This document shows positions 1-16,145 of a stretch of DNA of 64,000 bases, one piece after another. How positions within the stretch are numbered: position 1 is the first letter of the stretch; each line of letters opens with the position of its first letter. A model generated the notes under the pieces. The model was given only the letters and a program-made list of their open reading frames with translations. It ran no database searches and was not told where the DNA came from. This stretch comes from Bacilli bacterium (lineage in GTDB: Bacteria > Bacillota_I > Bacilli_A > RFN20 > UBA1709). Position numbers and translations under genes: made by a program. The stretch lies in the NCBI GenBank assembly GCA_034115825.1, contig JAXESU010000002.1:538233-602232 (forward strand), given 5' to 3'.

Positions 1-1
1 T

Positions 2-841
2 GTTTGTGCGCTTTTATCAAAAGCTATAGGCAATAATCTAACTGCTATTTTTGTTAATCATGGTTTACTTCGTTTACATGAAGAAGATGAAGTAATTAAT
101 AACTTTAAAGATTTTAATTTAAACTTTAAATATGTTGATGCAAGTGAAAACTTTTTAAATAGACTTGCCGGAGTTATTGATCCAGAACAAAAACGTAAAA
201 TTATTGGTGATGAATTCATTAATGTTTTTGTAAATGAAGCTAATAAATTAGAAGGAATTAAATATTTAGCACAAGGTACTATTTATCCAGATATTATTGA
301 AAGTGGTACAAAATTCCATAAAGTTGTTAAATCTCACCATAACGTTGGTGGTCTTCCAGAAAAGTTAAACTTTAAATTAATTGAACCATTAAAAATGTTA
401 TTTAAAGATGAAGTTAGAGAAGTTGGAAGATATCTTGGTTTAAGTGATGATTTAGTCTCACGCCAACCTTTCCCAGGACCAGGACTTGGTGTTAGATGTT
501 TAAATGGTATTACAAAAGAAAAATTAAATTTATTAAAACAAGCTGACTATATTTTAAGAGAAGAAGTAAAGAAAAATAAATTAGATAAAGCTATTTGGCA
601 ATATTTCTGTGTTCTTCCATCTGTTAAAGCAGTTGGTGTAAGAAATAATAGTCGTAGCTATGAAGATGCTATTGTTATTAGAATGGTCAATAGTATTGAT
701 GCAATGAGCGCTAAATTCTATGAAATGGAATATGCTTTATTAAGACATATCTCATATCGTATTACTCATGAAGTAGTAGGTATTTCTCGTGTTTTATTAG
801 ATATTACTGATAAACCACTTGGAACAATTGAATTTGAGTAG
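2..841 (+). CDS. guaA: GMP synthase (glutamine-hydrolysing), C-terminal portion; 5-prime end lies outside the window
   Basis: Frame-2 translation from the window edge reads ...LTAIFVNHGLLRLHEEDEV...HHNVGGLPEKLNFKLIEPL...SRQPFPGPGLGVRC...ISYRITHEV..GTIEFE*. These are the ATP-pyrophosphatase and dimerisation-domain motifs of GuaA. Stop TAG at 839-841. Confidence 0.9.
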   Translation, partial: VCALLSKAIGNNLTAIFVNHGLLRLHEEDEVINNFKDFNLNFKYVDASENFLNRLAGVIDPEQKRKIIGDEFINVFVNEANKLEGIKYLAQGTIYPDIIESGTKFHKVVKSHHNVGGLPEKLNFKLIEPLKMLFKDEVREVGRYLGLSDDLVSRQPFPGPGLGVRCLNGITKEKLNLLKQADYILREEVKKNKLDKAIWQYFCVLPSVKAVGVRNNSRSYEDAIVIRMVNSIDAMSAKFYEMEYALLRHISYRITHEVVGISRVLLDITDKPLGTIEFE

Positions 842-866
842 AAATAATAATTAAAGATAAAGTATT

Positions 867-897
867 AACTATTGTAAGTCATACAACAGTTGTTTTT
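867..897 (+). terminator. weak intrinsic terminator candidate after guaA
   Basis: Hairpin aactattg / caacagtt (one mismatch) followed by GTTTTT. Confidence 0.3.
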
Positions 898-1149
898 AGT
901 ATGATTTTTATTAATTTAATATTGAAGATAAAGTTATGTATTGAATTATGATATATTATTAGTAAAGTTTTTAATTTAAAATATCGAGAATCGACATAAT
1001 ATATATTAAATAAAATTAAGTTTGAAATACAATTTGATTAGGAAAAAATTTATTTGTAAAAGTCTAGTTGTATTCAATATTCATTAAATTATTGAAAAAT
1101 AATAAATATCTTCACCCAAATGATTAAAAAACAGGAAAAGAGGGATAGC

Positions 1150-3300
1150 ATGAAAATAGATTTGCACTGTCATACTAAGAAAACTAAAAAAGGTGATCCT
1201 GATACAAGGGAAGTTGATGCCAAAACTTTTAGAGAATCTGTTTTAAGTGCAGGAGTAAAAATAGTAGCTATAACAAATCACAATGTTTTTGATATTAAAC
1301 AATATTATTCATTTGTTTCAATTGCTAGTGATGATTTTCAAGTTTGGCCAGGTATCGAACTAGACGTAGAAGGTGAAATTCAAAATGGTCATGTTATTAT
1401 TGTTAATAATCCAAAAACAGTAGGAGTTTTTGATGAAAAAGTAAAAGAATTGATTGGTGATAGAAATCCTGATGAAGTATTAATTAGTATTGATGAGTTA
1501 ATTTCTTTTTTTAGTGAATTAGATGCAATTGTATTACCGCATTATTATAAACCTAAGTCCTTAGATGAAAATTCTATAGAAAAAATTAAAGAGTCGATTA
1601 TTGATGATTATAGATTCTTTTATGAGCCAAGTAGTTATAGAACAATGGGTATTTTAATTAATCATAAACAATCTTCTTTAATGGGATCTGATGTAAAAGA
1701 TTGGAAAAAATACGATCAAAATATTTTTTCGGAATTAAAACTGGATGTTGATACTTTTGATCAGTTTATATTATTAGCTAAAAAAGATCCGATTTTAGTT
1801 GATACTTTATTACACAAGAAAAATCAAACTATGATTGATATTGGTTATAAAGGAACTGGAAAGAACAAAAAGTATTCTGTTGAGGAATACGCACCAATAT
1901 ATGATGATATAAATATTATTTTTGGAACTAAAGGAACTGGAAAAAGTAATGTGTTAGAGCAAGTTAAAAAGTATTATATATCTAAAAACATTGATTTTAG
2001 TTATTATACTCCAAACAACACAAATGATGAGATTAATTCAAAACTAAAAGTATTTGATTCAGAGAGATTATTAGAAAAGTATTCTCTAAAAAATTTTGCA
2101 AGTGAATTTGAAAAGATTTCCAATTGGACAGAAGCGTCTATTACTCAGTTAAAAGATTTCATTGATTATTCAAAGTGTACTAAAATTAGTAAGAACAAAG
2201 AAAAACTAAAAATATTAGATACCAATATTTTTCTTGATGTCAGTGAAAAAGAAATAGATAAACAAAAAAAATATTCAGAATCTTTAAATGATATTTGCTC
2301 AAAATTAGATAGTATAGAGTTAGAAAAACATCTTGATAGTACAGAAATAGAGACATTATATACTATTTTAGGCAAGATTAATTATAGTATATATTCATTT
2401 TTGAAAGAAGCATGGATTGATTATGAAACTAAAAAACATTCTAATTTTACTATTGAAATGATGAAAAAAATTGTTGAGGAAAATACAGAAACAAAAACTA
2501 AACCAAGTAAAACTGGATTGTTTGATTTTGTTAATAATAGATTAGAATTAATTATTAATGTTAATCAAGTATGTAAAGGATTTGAACATAATTTTGCTTG
2601 TTCACCTATTAAAATAGGTAAATTGGAAGAAAACAAGATTTTATATATGGTAACTAAACATAAAATGCTTGATTCAAAAAGTAAAACAGATGAATTTAAG
2701 CATAATATCACACAACTTAGAGAAACAAAAGATAATTTGTTTAAGTTACAAAAGCATCTTTTTGATGTAAATATCAATGAAATAATTAGAGAGTTAAGTG
2801 ATAATTTGACGAGTTATTCAATTTTATCACTTGATGATTTTCTTGGAGTAAAAAAGGTATTTACGTTAGAACCAACAAAATTAGATGAAATAGAAGAATA
2901 TATTCCATCTACTGGAGAAGCTACTATGATAATTTTACAGGAAAAATTGAATGATAATAAGGATGTATTTATTTTGGATGAACCGGAAAAAAGTTTAGGA
3001 AATACATATGTAAACGACATTATTGTACCTAAATTAGTAAGTTTAGCAAAATCTAGAAAAGTTATTATTGTAGTAACACATAATGCGAATATAGCAGTTC
3101 GTACTTTTCCCTATACTTCTATATTAAAAAAATACCAAGAAGGGAAATATGAAACTTTTATTGGTAATCCTTTCGTCGATAAATTAACACAAATTGGTAA
3201 TGAGAGTAATTGTTTAAATTGGAAAGAGGAAAGTATTAAGATTCTTGAGGGCGGAATACTTGCGTTTGACGAACGAGGTGAGATATATGGCAGAAAATAA
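1150..3300 (+). CDS. PHP-family metal-dependent phosphoesterase/nuclease domain fused to an ABC/AAA_21 (OLD-type) ATPase; candidate defence protein
   Basis: RBS AAGAGGGA lies 6 nt before ATG 1150 (the ORF track's ATG 1120 has no RBS). PHP motifs at the N-terminus: DLHCHT, AITNHN, GIELDV, GHVIIV, LPHYY, INHK. Walker A GTKGTGKS, preceded by a degenerate copy GYKGTGKN. About 360 aa of K/E/L-rich insertion follow, then signature-like PSTGEAT, Walker B VFILDEPE and H-loop VVTHNANI. Confidence 0.75.
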   Translation: MKIDLHCHTKKTKKGDPDTREVDAKTFRESVLSAGVKIVAITNHNVFDIKQYYSFVSIASDDFQVWPGIELDVEGEIQNGHVIIVNNPKTVGVFDEKVKELIGDRNPDEVLISIDELISFFSELDAIVLPHYYKPKSLDENSIEKIKESIIDDYRFFYEPSSYRTMGILINHKQSSLMGSDVKDWKKYDQNIFSELKLDVDTFDQFILLAKKDPILVDTLLHKKNQTMIDIGYKGTGKNKKYSVEEYAPIYDDINIIFGTKGTGKSNVLEQVKKYYISKNIDFSYYTPNNTNDEINSKLKVFDSERLLEKYSLKNFASEFEKISNWTEASITQLKDFIDYSKCTKISKNKEKLKILDTNIFLDVSEKEIDKQKKYSESLNDICSKLDSIELEKHLDSTEIETLYTILGKINYSIYSFLKEAWIDYETKKHSNFTIEMMKKIVEENTETKTKPSKTGLFDFVNNRLELIINVNQVCKGFEHNFACSPIKIGKLEENKILYMVTKHKMLDSKSKTDEFKHNITQLRETKDNLFKLQKHLFDVNINEIIRELSDNLTSYSILSLDDFLGVKKVFTLEPTKLDEIEEYIPSTGEATMIILQEKLNDNKDVFILDEPEKSLGNTYVNDIIVPKLVSLAKSRKVIIVVTHNANIAVRTFPYTSILKKYQEGKYETFIGNPFVDKLTQIGNESNCLNWKEESIKILEGGILAFDERGEIYGRK

Positions 3301-3607
3301 GTTTGTAAAAGTGAAATTAAATTGTATTGATGAGAAATATTTACTTGAGTTCAATTTATCAGAAGTTAAATCTATTAGTTTATATGATGAAAATATGGAA
3401 CAATTAAAAGAATTATTCACTCAAATTATGAAGGATTTAATCAAAAATAATTTAAAATTTAAATTAGAGATATCTGAAGAAGCTAAGAATGGCTCTAATC
3501 AATTGGCATGTGATGTCGCAATCACATATGTTGATAAATTGAACACTGAGATTGAGACATTAATTCAAACTGATAACTTAAAAGAAGTGCGAGAGCATTT
3601 TAGTTAA
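3287..3607 (+). CDS. small acidic hypothetical protein (106 aa), translationally coupled to the PHP-ATPase gene
   Basis: ATG 3287 is preceded by AGGTGA (6 nt) and overlaps the upstream stop (3298-3300) by 14 nt. MAENKFVKVKLNCIDEKYLLEF...; no recognisable motif. The upstream in-frame ATG at 3245 lies inside the ATPase gene without an RBS. Confidence 0.55.
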   Translation: MAENKFVKVKLNCIDEKYLLEFNLSEVKSISLYDENMEQLKELFTQIMKDLIKNNLKFKLEISEEAKNGSNQLACDVAITYVDKLNTEIETLIQTDNLKEVREHFS

Positions 3608-4371
3608 TTTGCTTTTTTGATTATTAGAAACTATCTATATAGACTATCATATAAGATTTAGTGAATATTATATTTTTAACGAATTTGTATGTATAAAAAT
3701 TAATAAAGTAATTATTTTTAAAAAGAAACATTTAAAATTAACTAAGCTAATTACAATATAATTATGATACTATTATTGTTAGTTTAGTGATTTTAATATG
3801 ATACTATTAGTTTGTTACAAGTATACGCATTGTAAAAAATATGTGACAAAAGTAGATGTTTTATATAGAAACAAACTTAATTTGGTTAGAGAAGATAGAA
3901 CTGTTAAGAGGGTTTGAATAGTACAATAGTATTTTATCTATTTTATGTGGTAAGTAGTTTATGGGATTGTTTGTTTTATTAAATATTTTTTAAGAATATT
4001 TATTTAAGTGCCAAAAATAAATATTAAAAAGATAAAAGTTAAGTATGAAAAAAAGTTTTACAGATGAGTTATAAGAAAATAATATGACGGTTATTTTGGG
4101 TAAAATGCTAGAATTAGAGAAAGAAAAGTATAAAGATAAACTAATAAATATAATTATATGAGTTATTGGTGGAAAAGGAGCTCTTATATCTATTGGTTTG
4201 TTATGTTATAGGTTAGTAAGAATAAACTTTTCTTAGATAGTATACTATCTACTTTATTGACATTCTTTTCGGACTTCTTTTAATACATACATTGATTATA
4301 TTGATTCAATTAATTGTATTAATGGTTCGGTTTATGGATTTAAAAAGATGAAGATATTGGAGGGATTTAAA

Positions 4372-4842
4372 ATGACAACCAAGGAAATAGTATACAAATA
4401 TGAAAAGAAAGTATTTAAAAGAGCTTTATTAACACATTTAAAACCAATTACAATTTCAACATTTAGTCAATGCTTTATTGCTATGGTTTGTGGCTTTATT
4501 TACCTTAATGCTTATATGAATAATGATATTGTTTTATTCAATATTACTGCAATACCAGCGATGATTTGCTTACTTGGGGCAGGTATTGGATTAGTAATTT
4601 ACATTATCTTTTTTAAAAATTTATTAATAACAGCATATAATTGGTCATATGATCATTACCTAACTATTGATAATAATCAAGTAGTATTATTACTAAAATC
4701 GAGTGATGGTTTAAAAGAAGAAAAATATAAATTTCCGATTAAAAAAATTAAATTGGAGAAAGATAATTATTTAATTTTTAAGAATAATAATCATTTTGTT
4801 TATGTTCCAAAAGAACTTTTTGATGCTAGTAAGCAAGATTAA
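4372..4842 (+). CDS. small membrane protein, YcxB-like (two TM helices plus a bacterial PH-like domain)
   Basis: GGAGGG lies 8 nt before ATG 4372. Hydrophobic segments FIAMVCGFIYL and AIPAMICLLGAGIGLVIYIIFF are followed by a soluble C-terminal domain. Confidence 0.55.
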   Translation: MTTKEIVYKYEKKVFKRALLTHLKPITISTFSQCFIAMVCGFIYLNAYMNNDIVLFNITAIPAMICLLGAGIGLVIYIIFFKNLLITAYNWSYDHYLTIDNNQVVLLLKSSDGLKEEKYKFPIKKIKLEKDNYLIFKNNNHFVYVPKELFDASKQD

Positions 4843-4941
4843 TTATATTAAAAATTTTGATTATTTAAGTACATATAGAAGAGTATGTAAATAGAAGTAA
4901 GTTCAAAATAATGCATAACTTAATTAGTTAAATGTAATAAT

Positions 4942-4980
4942 AAAAAACAGTTACTGTAATGTTACAGTAGCTGTTTTTTT
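4942..4980. terminator. bidirectional rho-independent terminator between the convergent YcxB-like gene and cat
   Basis: aaaaaa-CAGTTACTGTAAT-GTTACAGTAGCTG-ttttttt; a 13-bp stem with one G-T pair, flanked by an A-run and a T-run. Confidence 0.7.
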
Positions 4981-5002
4981 AACTAAATATTATCTATATA
5001 TT

Positions 5003-5623
5003 TTATTTAAAATGATTAATTAATTCTTGTAAAGTATTTATAAATTTTCCAACATGATAGCCATCACAAACAGCGTGATGAACTTGAATAGCAAGAGGGA
5101 TAAAACGTTGATTATTATTTTCAAAAAATTTGCCGAAGGTAAAAATAGGTAATAAATATTTTCCATCATTATAAATATTGATGTTAAATGATGTAAAAGT
5201 AAACCATGGAATCATCGATACATCAAACGTATTTAATGGACGATCTTTTTTTGGCTCAAATGAAGTAGTATTTAAATATTTTTTTAAATCTTGATGATAA
5301 TTTTCTAAAAACACACGATAGTCATCATTATATAAAGTATAAATTGAAGAAAAAGTTTCACTTTCTTTATTAAAAATAGTATATGCTGGATTCATTTTAT
5401 CAAAAATAACTAACTTATCATTAATTGAAGTTGTTTTAAATTCATCAATGTTATTTATTGTTTTAGTTAATAAATAAAGAAGGGTAGGATATAATTTAAA
5501 ATTTTTAAGATTAGTAATATCTAGATTAACTACTGTTGAATATGTGCAAGGACACTTTGTAGTATAATGCTTAAAGTGTTCTTTTCTTTTATAAGTATTT
5601 AAATCAATTTCTTTATAATTCAT
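5003..5623 (-). CDS. cat: type A chloramphenicol O-acetyltransferase
   Basis: MNYKEIDLNTYKRKEHFKHY...SMIPWFTFTSFNINI...PLAIQVHHAVCDGYHVGKF: the classic CAT N-terminus and the HHAVCDGYH catalytic-His motif. RBS AAAGGA lies before ATG 5623; the ORF-track extension MKERKKV has no RBS. Confidence 0.9.
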   Translation of the reverse strand: MNYKEIDLNTYKRKEHFKHYTTKCPCTYSTVVNLDITNLKNFKLYPTLLYLLTKTINNIDEFKTTSINDKLVIFDKMNPAYTIFNKESETFSSIYTLYNDDYRVFLENYHQDLKKYLNTTSFEPKKDRPLNTFDVSMIPWFTFTSFNINIYNDGKYLLPIFTFGKFFENNNQRFIPLAIQVHHAVCDGYHVGKFINTLQELINHFK

Positions 5624-6656
5624 AACTTTTTTCCTTTCTTTCAATGCTATTTATATAACAGTTTAATTCCTTAAAAGTAAGATTAGCAGGTAAGTGATTA
5701 AATATTGTAGTAGGACTATTTTTCCCGCCACGAAGGCTAATATAATAATCAATAATTGATTCTTTAGCTTCGTTTAATGAGGAATACTCATGAATTCCTT
5801 TTGTTTCACTATTTGCGGTTTCAAGATGATAATATTTATTATTTAATTTATAAATAACAAAGCAATGCATGTGTTCATTTTCATCAAAGTTATTAAATGT
5901 TTCATCTTCGTAAATTCGACAACAATATAAATAGTTTTTAACTTTTATTTTGTTAAGCAAATAGTGAATTAAATAAGCTTGTTCAATACAAGTTCCACAT
6001 CTATATTTAAAAATTGCTTTTAAAGACATTGTTCGATAAAGAAGACGGAAACCTTTCATTTCTTTATTACTATGATAAATTTTATTGTTATCAATAAAAC
6101 CATAACTAATATTATTGCTAATAAAATTATAAATATCTCTTGGAGTTTTAATATTTTCAATTTTATTATAAAAAGAAGGAGAATAGTCAAAGGAGATACG
6201 TTTATCACCATTTGCTAAATAAATGGTTCCACATTGTTTAAATCCATAATTAAAGAGTGCTTTTTGCATTACTAAATTGTCTTTGTGAGTATCGATTCGT
6301 AAATAATTACATTTAGTTAGACAATAGTTAAAAATCTTTCTTGTAATATTAGGTATATTTGATTTTTTAGCAACTTTATGAATGACTCCATATTGCTCAT
6401 TTTTATTCCAGTTTCCTTCAATATAATCGTAGGTTGGATCATTAGTTATCGCAAAAGAAAAGCAGGCTTCAATATTATCATTTTCCTTTAAAATATATAA
6501 AATTTTCTTTTTTATATCATTTAAGATCATTTCTTTAGTCGGATATCCTTTTTGCCATTGATTAATATTGTTTGTTATAACCATAAAGTTTTGGGCATAT
6601 ACATATATTTCCATGATTTTATCAATATCTTTTTTAGTTGCTTTTTTAATAATCAT
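5613..6656 (-). CDS. fusion protein: N-terminal GNAT acetyltransferase plus a C-terminal papain-fold Cys-His-Asp/Glu domain (arylamine-NAT-like / transglutaminase-like)
   Basis: N-terminal approx. 150 aa GNAT-like (MIIKKATKKDIDKIMEIY...IHKVAKKSN..ITRKIFNYCL). C-terminus YRCGTCIEQAYLIHYLL (R-x-G-x-C-x-E, as in the NAT RGGYCFE motif), HMHCFVIY, YHLETAN. Stop overlaps the cat start by 11 nt. A TATAAT -10 box lies immediately upstream, and GGTGA before ATG 6656. Confidence 0.65.
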   Translation of the reverse strand: MIIKKATKKDIDKIMEIYVYAQNFMVITNNINQWQKGYPTKEMILNDIKKKILYILKENDNIEACFSFAITNDPTYDYIEGNWNKNEQYGVIHKVAKKSNIPNITRKIFNYCLTKCNYLRIDTHKDNLVMQKALFNYGFKQCGTIYLANGDKRISFDYSPSFYNKIENIKTPRDIYNFISNNISYGFIDNNKIYHSNKEMKGFRLLYRTMSLKAIFKYRCGTCIEQAYLIHYLLNKIKVKNYLYCCRIYEDETFNNFDENEHMHCFVIYKLNNKYYHLETANSETKGIHEYSSLNEAKESIIDYYISLRGGKNSPTTIFNHLPANLTFKELNCYINSIERKEKSYEL

Positions 6657-6790
6657 TTTTATCACCATTTATTATTATACCTTAATTTATTTAATGTATT
6701 AAATAATATTTACAATTTTATACTCATTTACTATAATAGATATAATTACTATCGACAAAAGTAATTAGTTAGAAAGAAGGAAGTAAAATT

Positions 6791-7891
6791 ATGAATAAGT
6801 ATTATGATAATTTTGAAATCACATCTTTAGACACAGAAATTTTAGAAGAAAAAGATGGCTATTATGTTTTTAAAGACACTATTTTTTATGGTGAAAAAGG
6901 TGGAATGCCAAGTGATGAAGGAACAATTAATGGTTTAGAAGTAGTTGAATTAAAATATGATGGTGACACTTTACTTCATAAAGTAAATGGAACTTTAACT
7001 AATCCAATTCATATGGAAGTTAATAAAGAAGTACGTGAAATTAACACTTCTGTTCAAACAGCTTTCCATATTTTAGATGGTTACTATGCTAAAAGAGGTC
7101 AATATTTACCTGCTGTAGGAGTTCATCCAAATAATCAATGGTTTGAAGTAAATAGTAAAGATATTACTAAAGAAGATTTAATGGAAGTTCAAGAATTTAT
7201 GAACAAAGTTATTGATGATGATGTTAAAGTTACTTTTGAGTACATTAATGGAAAAGATTACTATAATGAAAAGTATCAACATTATGATTTAGTACGTATT
7301 GTTAATATTGGTGATTTAGATAGTCAACCATGTGGAACTCTTCATCTAAATCATACTTCACAAATTAAAAGTTTTGTTATTTTAGACTTTGAAAAAACAA
7401 GTAAAGGTACAAGAGTTTATACTTGTGTAAATAAAGTTTGTGATGAACATTTAAAAAATTATTATAATTTATTAAAAGAAACAGGTAAAATTTTAGGTGT
7501 TAAAAAAGAAGAAGTAATTGAAAAAGCTAGTGAAGTAACTGCTTCCAATAAAGCTTTAAAGAAAGAAGTTCAAGATCTTAAAAAAGAATTGATGGATTTA
7601 AAAGCTAACTCCATTTTACAAGACGAAAATTTAATGTATAAGTATGAAACTAGTGATGCTAATGATTTACGTCTAATTGGTCAAAGTTTAATGAATCGTG
7701 TAAATGGTAATAAAATAGTTTATGCCTTAATTAATGATGAAATTAACTTTGCAATTGTTTCTTCAAGCAATGAAGCTCGTAATTATTTAGAAAAAGTTAA
7801 AACTTTAGGCAATGTCATTGGTGGAGGTTCTCCTAAAATTGTTACTGCTAAAGTAAAAGCAAATGAAGAAGACTTCTTAAATTTATTTTAG
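6791..7891 (+). CDS. alaX: AlaX-L type alanyl-tRNA editing protein (AlaRS editing-domain homologue with a DHHA1-like C-terminus)
   Basis: Zn motifs VQTAFHILDG and QPCGTLHLNHT (HxxxH ... CxxxH), a coiled-coil linker, and C-terminal GNVIGGGSP like the AlaRS C-terminal domain. Confidence 0.7.
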   Translation: MNKYYDNFEITSLDTEILEEKDGYYVFKDTIFYGEKGGMPSDEGTINGLEVVELKYDGDTLLHKVNGTLTNPIHMEVNKEVREINTSVQTAFHILDGYYAKRGQYLPAVGVHPNNQWFEVNSKDITKEDLMEVQEFMNKVIDDDVKVTFEYINGKDYYNEKYQHYDLVRIVNIGDLDSQPCGTLHLNHTSQIKSFVILDFEKTSKGTRVYTCVNKVCDEHLKNYYNLLKETGKILGVKKEEVIEKASEVTASNKALKKEVQDLKKELMDLKANSILQDENLMYKYETSDANDLRLIGQSLMNRVNGNKIVYALINDEINFAIVSSSNEARNYLEKVKTLGNVIGGGSPKIVTAKVKANEEDFLNLF

Positions 7892-7895
7892 TAAT

Positions 7896-7927
7896 TAAGT
7901 GAACTAATATTAGTTCACTTTTTTGTT
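7896..7927 (+). terminator. intrinsic terminator after alaX
   Basis: AAGTGAACTA-atat-TAGTTCACTT followed by TTTTTGTTT. Confidence 0.65.
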
Positions 7928-7964
7928 TAATGTGAAAGTTTTAACAACTTTGTGAAAAAACTTA

Positions 7965-8019
7965 TTGAAAAGCACAATATCTTTTTTTATAATATAAATG
8001 TAAGTCAAACTGACATTTA
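7965..8019 (+). promoter_or_regulatory. sigma-A-type promoter (TTGAAA-17-TATAAT) plus an imperfect 25-bp palindrome between -10 and RBS; likely TetR operator
   Basis: TTGAAA 7965-7970, TATAAT 7988-7993. TAAATGTAAGTCAAACTGACATTTA at 7995-8019 (symmetric except for 2 positions). Confidence 0.5.
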
Positions 8020-8039
8020 TTACAAAGGAGATTATAATT

Positions 8040-8657
8040 ATGTCTTTATTAGATGTTCGCAATCAAAATATTGAAAAAGTTACTAAAGAAGCTTTAAAGA
8101 TGTTTGTAAGTAAAGGAATAGAGAATAGTAAAGTAAGTGATATTGCTAAAAATTGTGATTTAGCAGAGCGCTCATTATTTCGATATTTTCCGACTAAAGC
8201 TGATTTAGTATTAGCGGCAGCAAAGTTGTTTTGGCATGAAATGGTTAAAAATTCATATAATGTATTAACTCAAATCGATAATTCTTTAGATGGTATTGAT
8301 CAACTATCAATTGTTGTCAAAACTTATGCCCATCAATTTTTTGATAATAAAGAAAAATTAATATTTGTTCAAGAAAGTGAAGTTTATTTATATCGATATA
8401 ATAAAGGAATATTAAATCCTGTTGATTTATTAAATAATCAAGATGCTCCTATGTATCAAGTGATACAAAAAGGAGTTAAAGATGGTTCAATAAAAAATCA
8501 AAATATTGAAGAATTATATCTAATAGTTTATGACAGTTTATTAGGGTTTATGCAAAAAATGGCTACAGGAATATATGCTAAATCACTAAGTAAAGCTGAA
8601 CAATTGCAATATTTAAATCTTTTTTGTGAAATGTTAGTTAATTCATTTAGAAAATAA
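8040..8657 (+). CDS. TetR/AcrR family transcriptional regulator
   Basis: N-terminal HTH: VSDIAKNCDLAERSLFRYFPTKADL. RBS AAAGGAG. Confidence 0.8.
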   Translation: MSLLDVRNQNIEKVTKEALKMFVSKGIENSKVSDIAKNCDLAERSLFRYFPTKADLVLAAAKLFWHEMVKNSYNVLTQIDNSLDGIDQLSIVVKTYAHQFFDNKEKLIFVQESEVYLYRYNKGILNPVDLLNNQDAPMYQVIQKGVKDGSIKNQNIEELYLIVYDSLLGFMQKMATGIYAKSLSKAEQLQYLNLFCEMLVNSFRK

Positions 8658-8670
8658 AGGAGAGGAAAAA

Positions 8671-10206
8671 ATGAATAATGTATATGATTGCATCATTATT
8701 GGTGGAGGTAATGGTGGACTTGCTAGTTGTGCCACATTAGCTAAAGAAGGTAAAAAAGTTATTTTATTTGAAAAACATAATATTCCCGGTGGATGTGGGA
8801 CAAGTTTTAGAAGGGGACGTTTTGAGTTTGAAGTTGCCCTACATCAATTAAGTAGTATGGGTACAAAAGAAAAACCAGGACCTTTAAGAGAACAATTTAG
8901 ACGTTATGGTATTGAAGATCAAATTGATTGGATTGAAATAAAAGAATTATTTAGAGTTAATTTTCCTGATGGAACTGGTGTTAGTTTACCTGCTGATAAA
9001 GAAAAATGTATTGATTTTTTAAGTAAAGAATTCCCTAATGAAAAAGAAAATATTAAACGTTATTTTGATGTTGTTTATAAGTTTTGTTTTGAAGCTAATG
9101 ATTTTGCAAGCAAAAGTGCTAAAAGTAGTAAAGAACCAAATGCCCTTAAAAAAGGTGTAATGAAATTTGCTTTCCCTAAAAAATATAAAACTTTAGCTAA
9201 TTATGGTCTAAAATCAACTCAAGAAGTTTTAGATGAATTTTTTAAAGATCAAAAATTACAATTAGCTTTAAGTGCATATTGGTGCTTTATGGGAGTTCCA
9301 CCTAAACGTTTCCCGTTTTCGATTTTAGCTAAATGTACGTGTTTTTATTTAGAAGATAAACCATTTTATTTAAAAGGAACATCAATGATGATGAACCAAG
9401 CTATTATGGATGCAAGTATTAAAATGGGGGCAACTGTTAAACTTAATTGTGGTGTTAAAAAGATTATCGTTAAAAATAATGAAGCTGTTGGAGTTGTTTT
9501 AGAAAATGGCGAAAAATATTATGCTAAAAAAATTATTTCTAATATTTCTCCATTACATACTTATGGAGCTTTGATGGATAAAGAAGATGTACCAGAAAGC
9601 GCTCGAGAATATTTAAAACCATATACAGTTGGTATTAGCGCATTAACATGTTTTATTGGTTTAGATTGTCCACCGAGTGAAATTGGTTTTAAAACATCAT
9701 TTACATTAAATTATAAGTCGATGGATGCTAACAATGATTTTAAAGATGCTTATAAATTATTACCGGAAAATGATCCACTTGTAGCTACTTGTTATACGGT
9801 TGATGATGAAAGTGTTTCACCAAAAGGAACGAGTGTTATTACAGCAGGTGTTTTAAAATATGCAACTGAATGGGAAAAATTAACAGCTGAACAATATTAT
9901 GAAGCTAAATATGAAGCTGGTAAACGAATCGTAGACCGACTTGAAGAAATGTATCCAGGATTTAAGAGTCATATTGAAGAAATGGAAATTGCTACTCCAT
10001 TAACTCATATGCGCTATTTAAACCATCCAGGAGGCGCAATTTATGGCTATGAACAAGACTTAAATCAATCAGTCTTTTTCTTTCCATCTGAAAGTAAAAT
10101 TAAAAATTTAGAATTTGCTAGTGGCTGGGTTAATGCTTGTGGATTTGGGCCTAACTATATGTATGCTGATAAAATTGCATTAAAAGTAGCAAAGGAGATT
10201 AAATAA
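8671..10206 (+). CDS. FAD-dependent oxidoreductase of the phytoene-desaturase / NAD(P)-FAD amine-oxidase-like family
   Basis: DCIIIGGGNGGLASCATLAKEGKKVILFEKHNIPGGCGTSF: dinucleotide-binding GxGxxG followed by the GG motif. Confidence 0.75.
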   Translation: MNNVYDCIIIGGGNGGLASCATLAKEGKKVILFEKHNIPGGCGTSFRRGRFEFEVALHQLSSMGTKEKPGPLREQFRRYGIEDQIDWIEIKELFRVNFPDGTGVSLPADKEKCIDFLSKEFPNEKENIKRYFDVVYKFCFEANDFASKSAKSSKEPNALKKGVMKFAFPKKYKTLANYGLKSTQEVLDEFFKDQKLQLALSAYWCFMGVPPKRFPFSILAKCTCFYLEDKPFYLKGTSMMMNQAIMDASIKMGATVKLNCGVKKIIVKNNEAVGVVLENGEKYYAKKIISNISPLHTYGALMDKEDVPESAREYLKPYTVGISALTCFIGLDCPPSEIGFKTSFTLNYKSMDANNDFKDAYKLLPENDPLVATCYTVDDESVSPKGTSVITAGVLKYATEWEKLTAEQYYEAKYEAGKRIVDRLEEMYPGFKSHIEEMEIATPLTHMRYLNHPGGAIYGYEQDLNQSVFFFPSESKIKNLEFASGWVNACGFGPNYMYADKIALKVAKEIK

Positions 10207-11369
10207 TGAAAAAGGGAATTAAAGAAACATTACTAGGAACACTAGTACATGGAAAAGAAGTTTTAAATAATATAGATGTCTTACGTAAAACAAGTAATGA
10301 TAAAATTGTTGAATATAATTTAGCTGATAATGTTATTAATAAATTACATCAAAAAGAATTACATTTAGTTGTTAATGAAATAATTGATACTCATAAAAAT
10401 GCTAAAATATTTCGTTTAGTAAGTGAAGATAATTACTTACCTCCTTTTGAAGCAGGGCAATATATTAATTTATTTGTTGAGATTGATGGAGTTTATACAT
10501 CTAGACCATATAGTATTTCTTCATCACCACTTCAAAGAGCTTATTATGAAGTTACTATTGCAAGAGTTAATGATGGATTTGTTTCTTCTTACTTTTTAGA
10601 TAAAGTTAAAGTAGGTGATAAATTAATTGCTAATGGTCCAAGTGGAGTATTTCATTATAATAAAGTATTTCATTCACCTAAAGCACTTTTTATTGCTGGT
10701 GGTAGTGGAATTACACCATTTATGTCAATGTTACGTGAAATTTTAAGCGCTAAACATGACCGTGATGTTGTTTTACTTTACGGTTGTCCAGAACTTAAAA
10801 ATGCCTTATATCATGATGAATTAACATATTTAAGTAAAACATATAATAACTTTAAATATCATTTAGTTTTATCAAATGAAGTTAATAAAGATTATGAGCA
10901 TGGATTTATTTCTAAAGAATTAATTACTAAATTAGTTAAAGATTATAATGAAAGAACTAGTTATATTTGTGGGCCACAAGTTATGAATGCTTTTGTCGAA
11001 AGTAATTTAAAAGAATTAAATGTACCACTTAAACAGATTCGAAGAGAAATGTTTTCATCAAATAAAAATGTTATTAAAGAAGAAGGTTTCCCTAAATCAT
11101 TAACGGGGGAAGAAGTATTTAATGTTAAAGTAAATGACCAAATGATAAAAGCTAAAGCAAATGAATCATTATTAGTTGCTTTAGAAAGAAACCATATTAG
11201 AGTTAATGTATGCTGCCGAAGTGGGGAATGTAGTTTATGTAGAGTAAAACTTGTTAAAGGTAAAGTATATTTAGCAAAAGGTATTTTACTACGTAAAGCT
11301 GATGAAAAATTTGGTTATATTCATTCTTGTAAAGCTTATCCATTAACTGATCTTGAAATTATGTTATAA
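10206..11369 (+). CDS. ferredoxin-NAD(P) reductase-type oxidoreductase with a C-terminal plant-type 2Fe-2S ferredoxin domain
   Basis: RPYSISS (FAD-binding RxYS), GGSGITPF (NAD-binding), CCRSGECSLCRV...C (2Fe-2S). Start overlaps the upstream stop. Confidence 0.75.
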   Translation: MKKGIKETLLGTLVHGKEVLNNIDVLRKTSNDKIVEYNLADNVINKLHQKELHLVVNEIIDTHKNAKIFRLVSEDNYLPPFEAGQYINLFVEIDGVYTSRPYSISSSPLQRAYYEVTIARVNDGFVSSYFLDKVKVGDKLIANGPSGVFHYNKVFHSPKALFIAGGSGITPFMSMLREILSAKHDRDVVLLYGCPELKNALYHDELTYLSKTYNNFKYHLVLSNEVNKDYEHGFISKELITKLVKDYNERTSYICGPQVMNAFVESNLKELNVPLKQIRREMFSSNKNVIKEEGFPKSLTGEEVFNVKVNDQMIKAKANESLLVALERNHIRVNVCCRSGECSLCRVKLVKGKVYLAKGILLRKADEKFGYIHSCKAYPLTDLEIML

Positions 11370-11399
11370 AGTAAGTGACAAGGTTCACTTACTTTTTTA
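11369..11399 (+). terminator. intrinsic terminator after the reductase gene
   Basis: AGTAAGTGA-caagg-TTCACTTACT followed by TTTTTT. Confidence 0.65.
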
Positions 11400-11400
11400 A

Positions 11401-11442
11401 TTGACAAAAATTAATAATCTTGATAAAATGAACATTGTTCAT
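11401..11442 (+). promoter_or_regulatory. promoter TTGACA-17-TAAAAT with a 15-bp perfect palindrome operator overlapping -10/+1
   Basis: TTGACA 11401-11406, TAAAAT 11424-11429, ATGAACATTGTTCAT at 11428-11442. Confidence 0.6.
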
Positions 11443-11457
11443 ATTGGTGGTGAGAAG

Positions 11458-12009
11458 ATGAATAAACAAGTTATTAGTAAAGAAAAAATTATTGAAATTA
11501 GTAAAGAAATGATTGCTCAAGATGGTTTTAATAGTATCAGTATTCGATCAATAGCCGAAAAAGGTAATGTTTCGATTGGGGTTATCTATAACTATTTTCA
11601 AAATAAAGATGAAATATTAATGGCAACAATCGAAGCCATTTTTAAAGAAATAGGTAAAGAATTATTACTTAATGATGATATTTCATTTATAAAGATGGTT
11701 AATGATATTTTTAATACTTTTAAAAATGGTAGTAATAAATATCCTAATTTTTTCTCCTTGCATACGTTAATGATTTCTTCAAATGAACGTCAAAAAGGAA
11801 GAGAAGTAATGAATGATTATTTTAAAGAATTAAAAAAACATTTATTAAAGTGTCTTAATAATGATTTAGATGTTAATCAGTCAATATTTAATAATCTAGA
11901 TAAAGAAAAGTATGTTGATTTTGTTTTTACTAATATTTTAAGTTTATTAATCAATCATGAAAATAATTGTGAAGTATTACTTTTTTCAATTAAACACACT
12001 ATTTATTAA
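11458..12009 (+). CDS. TetR family transcriptional regulator
   Basis: GGTGGTGAGAAG precedes ATG 11458. HTH: ISIRSIAEKGNVSIGVIYNYFQNKDE. The ORF-track start at 11401 would begin inside the promoter. Confidence 0.75.
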   Translation: MNKQVISKEKIIEISKEMIAQDGFNSISIRSIAEKGNVSIGVIYNYFQNKDEILMATIEAIFKEIGKELLLNDDISFIKMVNDIFNTFKNGSNKYPNFFSLHTLMISSNERQKGREVMNDYFKELKKHLLKCLNNDLDVNQSIFNNLDKEKYVDFVFTNILSLLINHENNCEVLLFSIKHTIY

Positions 12010-12028
12010 TGCTCATTGAGCATTTTTA
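12009..12028 (+). terminator. short hairpin plus T-run after the TetR gene (partial terminator/attenuator)
   Basis: ATGCTCA-tt-GAGCAT followed by TTTTT. Confidence 0.4.
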
Positions 12029-12040
12029 AATGAACAAATA

Positions 12041-12053
12041 TGAACAATGTTCA
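12041..12053 (+). promoter_or_regulatory. second copy of the TetR operator palindrome upstream of the membrane-protein gene
   Basis: TGAACAATGTTCA is a perfect 13-bp palindrome with the same half-sites as 11428-11442. It sits 25 nt before RBS AGGAGG / ATG 12078. Confidence 0.55.
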
Positions 12054-12077
12054 CTTTGCTTGATAGGAGGTATATAT

Positions 12078-12740
12078 ATGCAAGGAATTATTGAAACTAT
12101 TTTCGATGTTTGTTACCTTACATTAGTAATTAGTATTGGTATTTTAATGATCGTTAAAAGTAAAGGAAACAAACAATATTTATTATTTGGAATTATGGCT
12201 GTTACTCTAGGATTTGGTGATTCATTTCACCTTGTTCCAAGAATGATTGCTCTTTTAACTACTGGTTTAGATAGTTATACCAAAGCCTTAGGTATAGGTA
12301 AATTTATTACTTCAATTACGATGACTATTTTCTATGTAATTTTATATTATGTTTATCGATTACGTTATAAGGTAAAAGGTCAATTAACAACGACAATTTT
12401 AGTATATGGATTAGCGATAATTAGAATTATTTTATGTTTATTCCCACAAAATGAGTGGTTAAGTGCTTCTCAACCTTTAAGTTGGGGTATTTATCGAAAT
12501 ATTCCATTCGCTTTACTTGGTATCCTAATTATTGTGTTATTTTTTAGAGGAAGTCGTAAACATCAAGATAGTAACTTTAAATGGATGTATTTAACAATTG
12601 TTCTAAGTTTTGCCTTTTATCTTCCAGTTGTTTTATTTGCTGATGTTTATCCATTAATTGGAATGTTAATGATTCCTAAAACATGTGCTTATGTTTGGAC
12701 AGTATTAATTGGTTATTTTGATATGAAAGCAGTGAAGTAG
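12078..12740 (+). CDS. polytopic membrane protein (6-7 predicted TM helices), function unknown
   Basis: AGGAGG precedes ATG 12078 (MQGIIETIF...). The ORF-track ATG 12030 lacks an RBS and overlaps the operator. Confidence 0.6.
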   Translation: MQGIIETIFDVCYLTLVISIGILMIVKSKGNKQYLLFGIMAVTLGFGDSFHLVPRMIALLTTGLDSYTKALGIGKFITSITMTIFYVILYYVYRLRYKVKGQLTTTILVYGLAIIRIILCLFPQNEWLSASQPLSWGIYRNIPFALLGILIIVLFFRGSRKHQDSNFKWMYLTIVLSFAFYLPVVLFADVYPLIGMLMIPKTCAYVWTVLIGYFDMKAVK

Positions 12741-12741
12741 G

Positions 12742-13152
12742 ATGAAAAAATATTTTAAAATTGCCTTTATTTATTTAATTTTAGTCTTAGTTAGTGGTGT
12801 CTTTTATCGTGAATTTACAAAATTTAATCAATTTGATGGTAAAACAACTTTAGCAGTTACTCATTTACATTTCTTTGTTTTAGGTACATTATTTTTCTTG
12901 ATTTTAGCCTTAATAAATAATATTATTGATCTTCAACATCATAAATTATATAAGCCATTTATGATTTGTTATAATATAGGACTTCCATTAATGGTTATTA
13001 TGTTTTATGTAAGAGGTATTATTCAAGTCTTAGAAGTCAATATTTCTAGTTCTATTTCATCAATGATTTCAGGATTTGCAGGTATTGCTCATATTTTAGT
13101 TGGAGTATCATTAATTTTTATTTTTACTATTTTAATAAAAAAAGCAAAATAA
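12742..13152 (+). CDS. small membrane protein (4 TM helices), function unknown
   Basis: Hydrophobic throughout; start 2 nt after the upstream stop. Confidence 0.6.
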   Translation: MKKYFKIAFIYLILVLVSGVFYREFTKFNQFDGKTTLAVTHLHFFVLGTLFFLILALINNIIDLQHHKLYKPFMICYNIGLPLMVIMFYVRGIIQVLEVNISSSISSMISGFAGIAHILVGVSLIFIFTILIKKAK

Positions 13153-13216
13153 ACTCTTTTAAAAGGGTTTATTTTTTTGTATTTATGATAAAATAAAATT
13201 ATCGAGGTGAAGTTTT

Positions 13217-14206
13217 ATGAAAATTGGAATAATGGGTGCTGGTAAAATTGCTCATACAATGGCAAAGACAATTGTAAATATGCATGATAATAATATTATT
13301 TTAGAAGCAATTGGATCACGAAACATTCGAAAAGCTCAAGAATTTCAAAATCAATATAATATTAAAAAAGCATATGGAAGTTATTTGGATTTAGTTAATG
13401 ATAATGATTTAGATTTAATTTATATAGCGACACCTCACTCCGAGCATTTTAATAATGCTAATTTATGTTTGGACCATAATAAACATTGTTTAATCGAAAA
13501 ACCAATGTGCGTTAATTATAAAGAAGCAAAATATTTATTTGATAAAGCAAACCAAAAAGGACTATTATTAACTGAAGCAATTTGGACAAGATATATGCCA
13601 TCAGCCAAGTTTTTTAAGCAAATAATTGCATCACAAATTATTGGGGAAGTAAATAGTGTTGAAGCAAGTTTAGGATATAATTTAGTCAATGTTCCTCGAC
13701 TAAATGATCCTTATTTAGCCGGTGGAGCATTATTGGATGTTGGTATTTATCCACTGACATTTGCGTGTTTAGTTTTTAATTCATTACCGATTTTTGTCGA
13801 TGGCAATTGTGTTAAAACTAAAAACAATTTAGATGCAAGTGATAATATAACTTTAATTTTTGAAAATAATAAAATAGCCTGTTTACATGCAACAATGATT
13901 TCGAAAACTAGTCGAAAGGGTTTTATTTATGGTAGCAAAGGTTATTTAGTTGTTGATAACATTAATAATCCTTCTAAAGTAAGTCATTATGATAATGATG
14001 ATCATTTAATTAATGAACTTAGTTTCCCTAAACAAATAACTGGTTTTGAATATCAAATTTTAGAATGTTTCGATGCTATTAACAACAAACACCTTGAATG
14101 TCAAAGTGTTAAACAAATTGAAGTTTTAACAATTATGCAAACAATGGATACTCTAAGAAAAAAATGGGGAATTATTTATCCATTTGAAAAGGAGGAAGAT
14201 TTATGA
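13217..14206 (+). CDS. Gfo/Idh/MocA family NAD(P)-dependent oxidoreductase
   Basis: MKIGIMGAGKIAHTMAKT...EKPM. Confidence 0.8.
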   Translation: MKIGIMGAGKIAHTMAKTIVNMHDNNIILEAIGSRNIRKAQEFQNQYNIKKAYGSYLDLVNDNDLDLIYIATPHSEHFNNANLCLDHNKHCLIEKPMCVNYKEAKYLFDKANQKGLLLTEAIWTRYMPSAKFFKQIIASQIIGEVNSVEASLGYNLVNVPRLNDPYLAGGALLDVGIYPLTFACLVFNSLPIFVDGNCVKTKNNLDASDNITLIFENNKIACLHATMISKTSRKGFIYGSKGYLVVDNINNPSKVSHYDNDDHLINELSFPKQITGFEYQILECFDAINNKHLECQSVKQIEVLTIMQTMDTLRKKWGIIYPFEKEEDL

Positions 14207-15566: not shown

Positions 15567-15596
15567 AAAAGGAGTAAAATGCTCCTTTTATTTTTC
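15565..15596. terminator. bidirectional terminator between proC and the convergent TetR gene
   Basis: aaaaAAGGAG-taaaatg-CTCCTT-ttattttt. Confidence 0.6.
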
Positions 15597-16145
15597 AATT
15601 AATTTAATTGTTTTATCAATAAATTCATCAATATTAATATTATTATTTAACTTTTGTTGAATAAATAAGCCATCAGAAATAATAATCAATAGAGTCGATA
15701 AATATTTGGAATCAGTATATTTACTCGATAATTTATCAGCAATTAAATCGATAAATTGATTATAATGACGAATTAATTCTTTTCGTAAAATTAAATTATT
15801 TGTTGTTGCTTCTAAAAAAAGTTGAAGTCGACTATTAAGAGTTGAAATATTACGTTTAATAATATAAGAAATAGCACGATGAAGTGAAGTATCTTTACTT
15901 AAATCATCGATCCAATTAACAAAATCATTATATTGTTTATCTAAATCCTTATTTGCTATATCAATAATAATATCGTTTTTCGTTTTATAGTAATAATATA
16001 ATGTACCACATGAAATATTTGCTTCACTAGCTATTAATTTTAATGAGATACTATTTAAAGGACGATTTTCACATAGGTTGATTAAAGTATCTTGAATCAA
16101 TTCTTTGATATTTTCATTACGAATTTTTGCCATTTTCATCACCAA
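15588..16145 (-). CDS. TetR family transcriptional regulator, divergent from the glpA-like operon
   Basis: HTH: ISLKLIASEANISCGTLYYYYKTKND. The start may instead be ATG 16133 (MAKIRNEN). Confidence 0.75.
   Translation of the reverse strand: MVMKMAKIRNENIKELIQDTLINLCENRPLNSISLKLIASEANISCGTLYYYYKTKNDIIIDIANKDLDKQYNDFVNWIDDLSKDTSLHRAISYIIKRNISTLNSRLQLFLEATTNNLILRKELIRHYNQFIDLIADKLSSKYTDSKYLSTLLIIISDGLFIQQKLNNNINIDEFIDKTIKLIEK

Follow-up and report, generated by a model that had tools for sequence, protein, structure and literature searches.

This analysis concerns the interval between guaA, the gene for GMP synthase, and an alaX-like gene, at positions 842-6790 of a 64,000-nucleotide stretch of DNA from a Bacilli bacterium of the UBA1709 lineage (assembly GCA_034115825.1, contig JAXESU010000002.1, positions 538,233 to 602,232). 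This whole stretch is called the window below. The interval is a strain-variable accessory region, and what looks like a single island consists of two parts: a strain-specific insert, which carries a two-gene cassette with a candidate phage-defence gene, and a resident, hypervariable operon that encodes a GNAT-type protein and a putative chloramphenicol acetyltransferase (cat). This structure was resolved mainly by comparison with a conspecific contig, L009, and with two metagenome contigs that share the cassette, L001 and L002. The features of the interval and its flanks, in window positions, are as follows.

2-841, plus strand: 3' part of guaA (GMP synthase), 279 codons and a TAG stop codon; conserved left flank (Pfam GMP_synt_C, 4.9e-35)
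843-850: left copy of the 8-bp direct repeat AATAATAA, directly 3' of the guaA stop (junction alignment and sequence)
843-4935: strain-specific segment of 4,093 bp, equivalently 851-4943 (BLASTN and MAFFT against L009)
1086-3630, plus strand: two-gene cassette, including a 5' leader of about 65 bp and a 3' tail of about 25 bp (93% DNA identity to L001 and L002)
1150-3300, plus strand: gene for a predicted PHP domain fused to an SMC/RecN-like ABC ATPase, PDC-M49A-like (PADLOC PDC-M49A, 9e-29)
3287-3607, plus strand: gene for a 106-amino-acid (aa) partner, conserved in position, matching no known family
3608-4371: non-coding stretch of 764 bp, about 21% GC (open reading frame scan, Rfam, folding)
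4372-4842, plus strand: gene for a small membrane protein of 156 aa, its start preceded by a ribosome-binding site; the reading frame opens at 4348
4936-4943: right copy of AATAATAA, where homology to L009 resumes
4947-4981: hairpin between an A-run and a T-run, read from the sequence and conserved in L009
5003-5623, minus strand: cat, a putative type-A-like chloramphenicol acetyltransferase of 206 aa (Pfam CAT, 1.8e-73)
5150-6790: hyper-divergent tract that starts inside cat and ends just before alaX (sliding identity profile)
5613-6668, minus strand: gene for a predicted fusion of GNAT and a transglutaminase/papain-like domain, 351 aa (PDB matches, AlphaFold2 and Foldseek)
5636-6198, minus strand: 563-bp segment encoding the transglutaminase-like domain, missing from L009
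6791-7891, plus strand: gene for an AlaX-like tRNA-editing protein; conserved right flank (Pfam tRNA_SAD, 8.3e-10; NCBIfam AlaXM and the C-terminal part of AlaS)

The guaA stop is the TAG at 839-841, and no housekeeping gene lies between it and alaX. A first-pass annotation made from the sequence had said the same, and its coordinates and gene calls for the interval were correct. It had also described the interval as even more AT-rich than its surroundings. The window is part of a low-GC Firmicute chromosome (27.5% GC overall), and the interval, at 23.5% against 27.9% for the rest, is indeed its most AT-rich stretch of about 6 kb, the lowest value elsewhere at equal length (5.9 kb) being 25.4%. 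The strain-specific segment alone, at 23.8%, lies below every other 4.1-kb stretch of the window. Gene by gene, however, the deviation is modest, with GC z-scores between -0.6 and -1.7.

The two-part structure emerges from L009, a 32-kb Logan contig of the same species that was found by a search with AlaX (99%-identical protein). At the DNA level this contig is 96% identical to the window over guaA (window 1-840) and again from 6765 onward, and the encoded proteins are 98.9% (guaA), 98.6% (AlaX), 76% (cat) and 68.5% (GNAT) identical. The distance between guaA and alaX in L009 is only 1.4 kb, occupied by cat and a 172-aa GNAT gene. Window positions 843-4935 are absent: the guaA stop leads straight to the hairpin preceding cat, which in L009 lies directly between these two genes. 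The repeat AATAATAA is present once at this empty site, overlapping the TAA stop of the L009 guaA, and twice at the filled site, with one copy at each end of an insert that begins 1-2 nt past the guaA stop codon. A further segment, 5636-6198, is without a counterpart in L009, where the gene encodes GNAT only. The first-pass annotation had proposed looking for presence or absence of the region in relatives, and L009 supplies this polymorphism, since its guaA and alaX are 1.4 kb apart without 843-4935.

The part of the interval that both strains share is itself highly variable. A sliding comparison gives 60-80% DNA identity across 5150-6790 against 94-100% in the flanks, and the GNAT-cat operon as a whole is about 80% identical between window and L009. 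This mosaic, in which identity falls from 96% to 60-80% and returns to 96%, indicates that homologous recombination with divergent donors acts on the interval. In the nearest outgroup with guaA-alaX synteny (L010/L011, AlaX 63% identical), the interval encodes a His_Phos_1 protein and a MurJ/MatE-type protein, and none of the genes of the window's interval is present there. Together, the differences from L009 and from this outgroup show that the interval varies at both strain and genus level. Among AlaX relatives at 60% identity or less the guaA-alaX linkage is absent, and those at 53-54% identity, which lack it, are therefore uninformative on the interval. Other searches for relatives returned little: a scan of a genome collection with AlaX recovered none, the same scan with the guaA fragment gave only distant Clostridia at no more than 64% identity, which carried no close synteny information and served for the integrase census described below, exact-pattern scans of JGI metagenomes with the guaA end and with the terminator junction produced zero matches, and the window's AlaX and P0241 had no exact-protein match on record.

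Two further observations concern the surroundings of the interval. A second strain-variable junction lies at about 15586-15608 of the window, at a TetR gene (15588-16145, minus strand); homology to L009 ends there, beyond this point L009 encodes two unknown proteins and an IS110-family transposase, and synteny with L010 resumes at 15586. In addition, the GuaA of this lineage is short. The orthologue in L009 (7353-8621) has 422 aa and that in L010 has 421 aa, and by Pfam the L009 protein comprises a PP-loop ATP-pyrophosphatase and GMP_synt_C, with no glutamine amidotransferase domain in its first ~110 residues.

The core of the insert is the two-gene cassette. Its large gene encodes 716 aa from the conserved MKIDLHCHT start at 1150, or 726 aa from the opening of the reading frame at 1120, and is predicted to specify a PHP phosphoesterase or nuclease fused to an SMC/RecN-like ATPase, with its catalytic motifs intact. 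PADLOC models of PDC-M49A match it at 9.1e-29 and 1.8e-28 over its full length (residues 12-723). The score is moderate, so the protein is a distant member of PDC-M49A, itself a candidate for phage defence. More than 1,200 homologues were found. Alignment of 56 homologues shows no variation in the PHP metal ligands, the Walker A motif (GxKGxGKS), the ABC signature (PSxGE), Walker B (DEPE) or the H-loop, and the protein has all of them. An AlphaFold2 model (mean pLDDT 89.7) was compared by Foldseek: the closest structures to the N-terminal PHP domain are RNase AM and related phosphoesterases, and those closest to the SMC-type head with its long coiled-coil insertion are RecN, Wadjet JetC, the retron-IA ATPase and PARIS AriA. 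Weak local PADLOC matches to Ppl (1.1e-6, residues 583-662) and AriA (3e-6) were also obtained. Two other assignments were rejected. Membership of Ppl would rest on a local match of 80 residues over the ATPase signature and Walker B. The NCBIfam family TrlF (NF045780) matches at 2e-22, with the best stretch in the N-terminal PHP region, and its 79.6 bits fall far under the curated cut-off of 350.

The ATPase gene and the second gene share 14 nt, at the end of the former and the start of the latter. Its 106-aa product occurs at the same position in four other contigs (L001, L003, L006 and L008) at 57-89% identity. The protein matches no Pfam family, and neither it nor its homologues match any PADLOC model, PDC-M49B included, even at E<=10. 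Distant homologues of the large protein, at 31-34% identity, are also encoded on four predicted viral contigs from IMG/VR (L097-L100); in three of these four, an open reading frame of 109-113 aa starts where the large gene ends or slightly upstream of that point, and the longest such frame in L100 has 53 aa.

The cassette was compared with several known systems. It resembles PDC-M49, described as one A family followed by alternative B families (table in bioRxiv 10.1101/2024.01.29.577857), in its full-length PDC-M49A match, in the order of a large A gene and a small B gene, and in lying within or beside restriction-modification (R-M) and BREX genes elsewhere. It differs in its moderate score and in a partner that has no PADLOC match. 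With Ppl it shares a PHP phosphoesterase domain and a P-loop/ABC ATPase, along with the weak local match, but Ppl is a single gene, whereas here there are two genes and a shorter protein. PARIS AriA/AriB, OLD and Gabija GajA, Wadjet JetC/JetD and retron-IA likewise combine an SMC/RecN-like head, a coiled-coil insertion and a nuclease-type effector. Unlike in those systems, an N-terminal PHP domain here takes the place of TOPRIM or HNH and a 106-aa partner is added, and there is no sequence-level membership.

The cassette occurs in different genomic contexts and is exchanged horizontally. Its 93% DNA identity to L001 and L002 is limited to 1086-3630; outside it these two contigs are unrelated to the window, with 32-36% GC and with genes for a BrxL_N fragment and an IS110-family transposase. 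Such high identity in unrelated, higher-GC contexts points to recent transfer. More distant copies (L003-L008) are 72-77% identical, and in every higher-GC host the cassette is the lowest-GC segment. Between L003 and the window, protein identity is 70% for the cassette but only about 52% for guaA. Relatives at 70-77% identity, and the 93% copy, lie beside defence genes. A BREX fragment follows the 93%-identical copy, the L003 homologue comes after an LlaJI-type R-M system and before Vsr, the L006 homologue stands ahead of a type I R-M system with Mrr, and that of L008 lies between a methyltransferase and an OLD-like gene. A comparison with plasmid and phage DNA yielded, besides cat, one weak match to the PHP-ATPase gene on a Clostridium plasmid.

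The insert begins at a site that is repeatedly used by mobile elements. The guaA 3' end is the integration site of Tn5801-like islands, which have 11-bp repeats on either side (PMC4844618). In a census of guaA loci from other species, 80 were fetched, of which 50 extend 3 kb or more past guaA. A full-length related tyrosine integrase, sharing 45-60% identity with the L003 enzyme, lies no more than 3 kb beyond the guaA stop in 16 of these 50. This bears out the earlier designation of the guaA 3' end as an integration hotspot. The census integrases come in two arrangements, one on the minus strand about 110-130 bp after guaA (L023, L044 and L092, like L003) and one on the plus strand 0.4-1.6 kb downstream (13 loci), which suggests two element families sharing the guaA site. 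At two loci, L016 and L044, the guaA end GAGTGGGAATA(A) is repeated 3.8 and 8.2 kb downstream. A complete example is L003, in which positions 735-13786 form an integrase-bearing guaA-3' island whose far end runs off the contig. After guaA this island encodes a NikA-like protein, the tyrosine integrase, a PemK toxin, helix-turn-helix regulators, two C5 methyltransferases with an LlaJI-type endonuclease, the PHP-ATPase pair and Vsr.

Comparable traces of an integrating element were sought in the window. No recombinase family is among the Pfam matches to the open reading frames of 842-6790, and tblastn with the L003 guaA-island integrase found nothing in the window at E<=1e-3, in agreement with the first-pass reading that the region lacks a recombinase. 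That annotation had also called for a search for a duplicated, attachment (att)-like guaA 3' sequence, and nothing clearly above chance was obtained: the best duplicate matches 18 of 20 bases (790-809 with 4530-4549), had an equal or better counterpart in 2 of 100 Markov simulations, and is located within the membrane-protein gene and not at a structural boundary. The insert thus shares with Tn5801-like integrative and conjugative elements and islands the guaA 3' insertion point and strain-variable cargo, and the L003 element carries a homologous cassette. It differs from them in having no integrase, no conjugation or mobilisation genes and no 11-bp guaA-end repeat, in its length of 4.1 kb and in its 8-bp A/T repeat.

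The remainder of the insert is sparse. The non-coding stretch at 3608-4371 has no open reading frame longer than 39 aa and no Rfam match at E<=1, folds no better than shuffled sequences (z = -0.66), gives background-level results in promoter and terminator scans, and shows no similarity to the fetched loci, plasmids or phages. Comparison of the non-coding parts with all fetched loci revealed zero remnants of genes or pseudogenes. The stretch may hold the promoter of the membrane-protein gene, or it may consist of fully decayed genes. It contains a 13-nt direct repeat, TATGATACTATTA, at 3763-3775 and 3797-3809 (34 bp apart), which could be an operator-like site or a product of chance. On the plus strand, a small reading frame at 4084-4236 contains an in-frame TGA (4159-4161). 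With readthrough of this codon it would encode 50 aa ending in a hydrophobic tail (MTVILGKMLELEKEKYKDKLINIII*VIGGKGALISIGLLCYRLVRINFS), and it may be a decayed gene for a small membrane peptide. The idea prompted by this frame, that TGA is read as tryptophan (genetic code 4), was rejected because the long conserved reading frames read cleanly with table 11. The membrane protein has a weakly YcxB-like C-terminus (Pfam YcxB, 0.008, under threshold), and its family is tiny, with 14 clusters at E<=0.001 among 1.84 billion representative proteins; a scan of viral contigs for it found none. The hairpin at 4947-4981, just beyond the insert, looks like a bidirectional terminator, and the consensus terminator scan did not call it.

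The second part of the interval is the resident GNAT-cat operon. The ATG-start form of cat overlaps the upstream gene by 11 nt, and the reading frame extends to a TTG at 5644. The product carries the catalytic motif HHAVCDG and a full-length match to Pfam CAT (PF00302). Among NCBIfam models CatA is by far the best, at 267.4 bits against a cut-off of 270, with CatA_like_3 next at 135.9. These features are shared with CatA enzymes, and the differences lie in a score just under this cut-off, in about 70% DNA identity to plasmid catA genes and in the location within a chromosomal operon with GNAT. From these sequence features, cat would encode a type-A-like enzyme and is a candidate chloramphenicol resistance gene. 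As the overlapping GNAT-cat operon is also present in L009, cat is to be regarded as a resident chromosomal gene, not as cargo that arrived with the defence candidate. The earlier label of a defence/resistance island holds only in part. The region is strain-variable and recombinase-less, as proposed, but cat and the GNAT gene lie outside the strain-specific insert and are common to L009, and the label overstates a content of one defence candidate and one candidate resistance gene.

The 351-aa protein encoded upstream of cat is 100% identical to the NCBI entry 'MAG: Bacilli bacterium SO253_03570'. Its N-terminus (residues ~1-160) is related to GNAT acetyltransferases, with PDB matches to 3h4q (4.7e-9) and 2pc1 (8.5e-9) over residues 6-152; the Pfam GNAT model gave no match to the protein itself, and homologues carry PF00583. 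The C-terminal domain (residues ~160-351) was modelled by AlphaFold2 with a pLDDT of 93.7. In Foldseek its best match is the CPR-C4 protease (6.6e-5, TM score 0.56), followed by vasohibins, TglA and arylamine N-acetyltransferases, and conservation of C68 and H109 (domain numbering) reaches 90% or more. The modelled fold and the near-invariant cysteine and histidine support, at the level of fold, the first-pass prediction of a GNAT-papain fusion. The domain thus appears similar to CPR-C4, vasohibin and transglutaminase-like peptidases in predicted fold and in its conserved Cys and His, and it differs from them in its low identity (15-16%), the lack of a Pfam family and the fusion to GNAT. This domain of about 190 aa (window 5616-6191, minus strand; residues 160-351), for which there is no Pfam model, is elsewhere fused to GNAT, AAA_33 kinase, APH, VanY, NUDIX, ASCH, GAF and HD domains, and may represent an unnamed domain family.

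Taken together, the interval is probably a strain-variable accessory locus at the guaA 3' hotspot, in which a strain-specific insert with a horizontally acquired, PDC-M49-like defence candidate lies beside a GNAT-cat operon that is resident and divergent. Several points weigh against this interpretation. Only one conspecific contig was found, so that the frequency and direction of the insertion or deletion rest on L009 and one outgroup. The repeat AATAATAA is a weak mechanistic signature, as it has 8 bp, consists of A/T only and occurs 21 times in the 64-kb window. The GC content (z about -0.6) and codon use (z about 0) of the cassette are indistinguishable from those of host genes, which means that composition alone is no proof of foreign origin. 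On the defence side, the PHP-ATPase is the only PADLOC match, the membrane protein, cat and the GNAT fusion being unmatched; with a single candidate in the window, this is not a multi-system defence island. The partner fits no PADLOC model, PDC-M49B included, and PDC systems are candidates predicted by guilt-by-embedding (Payne et al. 2024, bioRxiv 10.1101/2024.01.29.577857), so the phage-defence role of PDC-M49-type genes is a prediction from genome context.

The alternatives differ mainly in how the insert came to be where it is. It could be a decayed, integrase-borne element of the Tn5801 or integrative and mobilizable element type that was integrated at the guaA 3' att site by site-specific recombination and has since been stripped of its integrase and of most att sequence. 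Such elements integrate where the insert begins, at the guaA stop, and a short direct repeat flanks the insert; Tn5801-like islands have 11-bp repeats at guaA (PMC4844618), L016 and L044 repeat the guaA end, an integrase lies within 3 kb in 16 of 50 guaA loci, and the L003 island carries a homologous PHP-ATPase pair. Nevertheless, neither tblastn nor tblastx detected an integrase or a remnant of one, the 8-bp A/T repeat lies beyond the last guaA codons and not over them, and the best repeat of the guaA end is at chance level and within a gene. The insert is also only 4.1 kb long and the cassette is found in contexts other than guaA, all of which makes a decayed element rather unlikely. The opposite direction of change, with an ancestral 4.1-kb segment that was deleted from L009 between the 8-bp repeats, is in our judgement also unlikely. 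Slippage or microhomology deletion classically leaves such a pattern, with short repeats flanking the filled site and one copy at the empty site, and the codon use of the cassette fits the host; against this stand an outgroup that has the guaA-alaX linkage without any of these genes, and the 93%-identical copies in unrelated, higher-GC contexts. Even with such a deletion the segment would remain accessory. The flanking repeat itself would fit any of three origins: a microhomology junction, a vestigial att core or a deletion in L009. That the region is no island at all, and merely ordinary chromosome whose gene order all close relatives share, is extremely improbable. Both conspecific sequences do have cat and the GNAT gene in the same order, but strains that are otherwise 96% identical differ by the presence or absence of 4,093 bp and 563 bp and by a tract of 60-80% identity, and the next relative, L010, carries different cargo. 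The first-pass annotation had named a guaA-alaX order conserved in close relatives as the observation that would speak against an island, and L009 and L010 contradict it.

A separate question is whether the cassette has anything to do with defence. The PHP-ATPase pair might instead be a housekeeping module of DNA repair, similar to RecN or SbcC, within a region of miscellaneous accessory DNA. Its best fold matches include RecN, cohesin and condensin heads and Rad50; TrlF, its NCBIfam relative, comes from a Photorhabdus temperature-restriction operon for which no defence function was reported in PMC7554251; and the defence role of the PDC-M49-type family is itself a prediction. However, the pair is patchily distributed and missing from the conspecific L009, it is consistently found within or beside R-M, BREX, OLD or Mrr genes, and it is a PADLOC candidate. 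Moreover, the same class of ATPase powers the PARIS, Wadjet, retron-IA and OLD systems, and a PHP domain is found in the validated Ppl system (bioRxiv 10.1101/2025.09.30.679545), which leaves a repair role quite unlikely. The most far-reaching proposal combines origin and function. It holds that the 4.1-kb segment is a minimal, recombinase-less remnant resembling a cis-mobilizable element, which used the guaA-stop site in trans through the guaA-specific integrases that are common among neighbouring gut Firmicutes and delivered a functional immunity system of PHP nuclease and SMC-like ATPase, with the 106-aa partner and the rare membrane protein as new components. This proposal is speculative and, in our estimate, improbable.

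Under the favoured interpretation of a strain-specific insert beside a resident operon, the interval would be built in two layers. The first (843-4935) would be a 4.1-kb insert at the guaA stop, with an 8-bp repeat at each end and an exchanged two-gene operon as its core. The second (~4936-6790) would be the resident GNAT-cat operon, for which the conspecific strain carries a very divergent allele. Most likely, the content was imported and reshuffled by host recombination, with the conserved flanks, guaA and alaX, serving for homologous exchange and with a junction at the level of microhomology for the insert. Such a route of homologous recombination could import cargo without a recombinase. 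Within the cell, the cassette might act as an ATP-driven, SMC-like sensor of foreign nucleic acid or of a phage cue, which would steer the PHP domain to degrade nucleic acid, and the translationally coupled 106-aa partner might serve as an adaptor or regulator. This mechanism is drawn from architecture and context only, and we likewise infer the defence activity, the direction of the insertion or deletion and the route of arrival.

In general terms, the locus belongs to known kinds, combining a guaA-3' accessory region with an ABC-ATPase-plus-nuclease candidate that is already in PADLOC, and it overturns nothing. It does provide an example, resolved to single base pairs, of variation at the guaA 3' hotspot in an uncultured, low-GC lineage of gut Bacilli that encodes no recombinase there. 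The recognition of cat as a resident, divergent gene and not as mobile cargo is relevant to resistome annotation of metagenome-assembled genomes. In addition, five independent contexts associated with defence are documented for a PDC-M49-type system whose motifs are intact and whose partner gene is conserved, which makes it a reasonable candidate for experimental testing.

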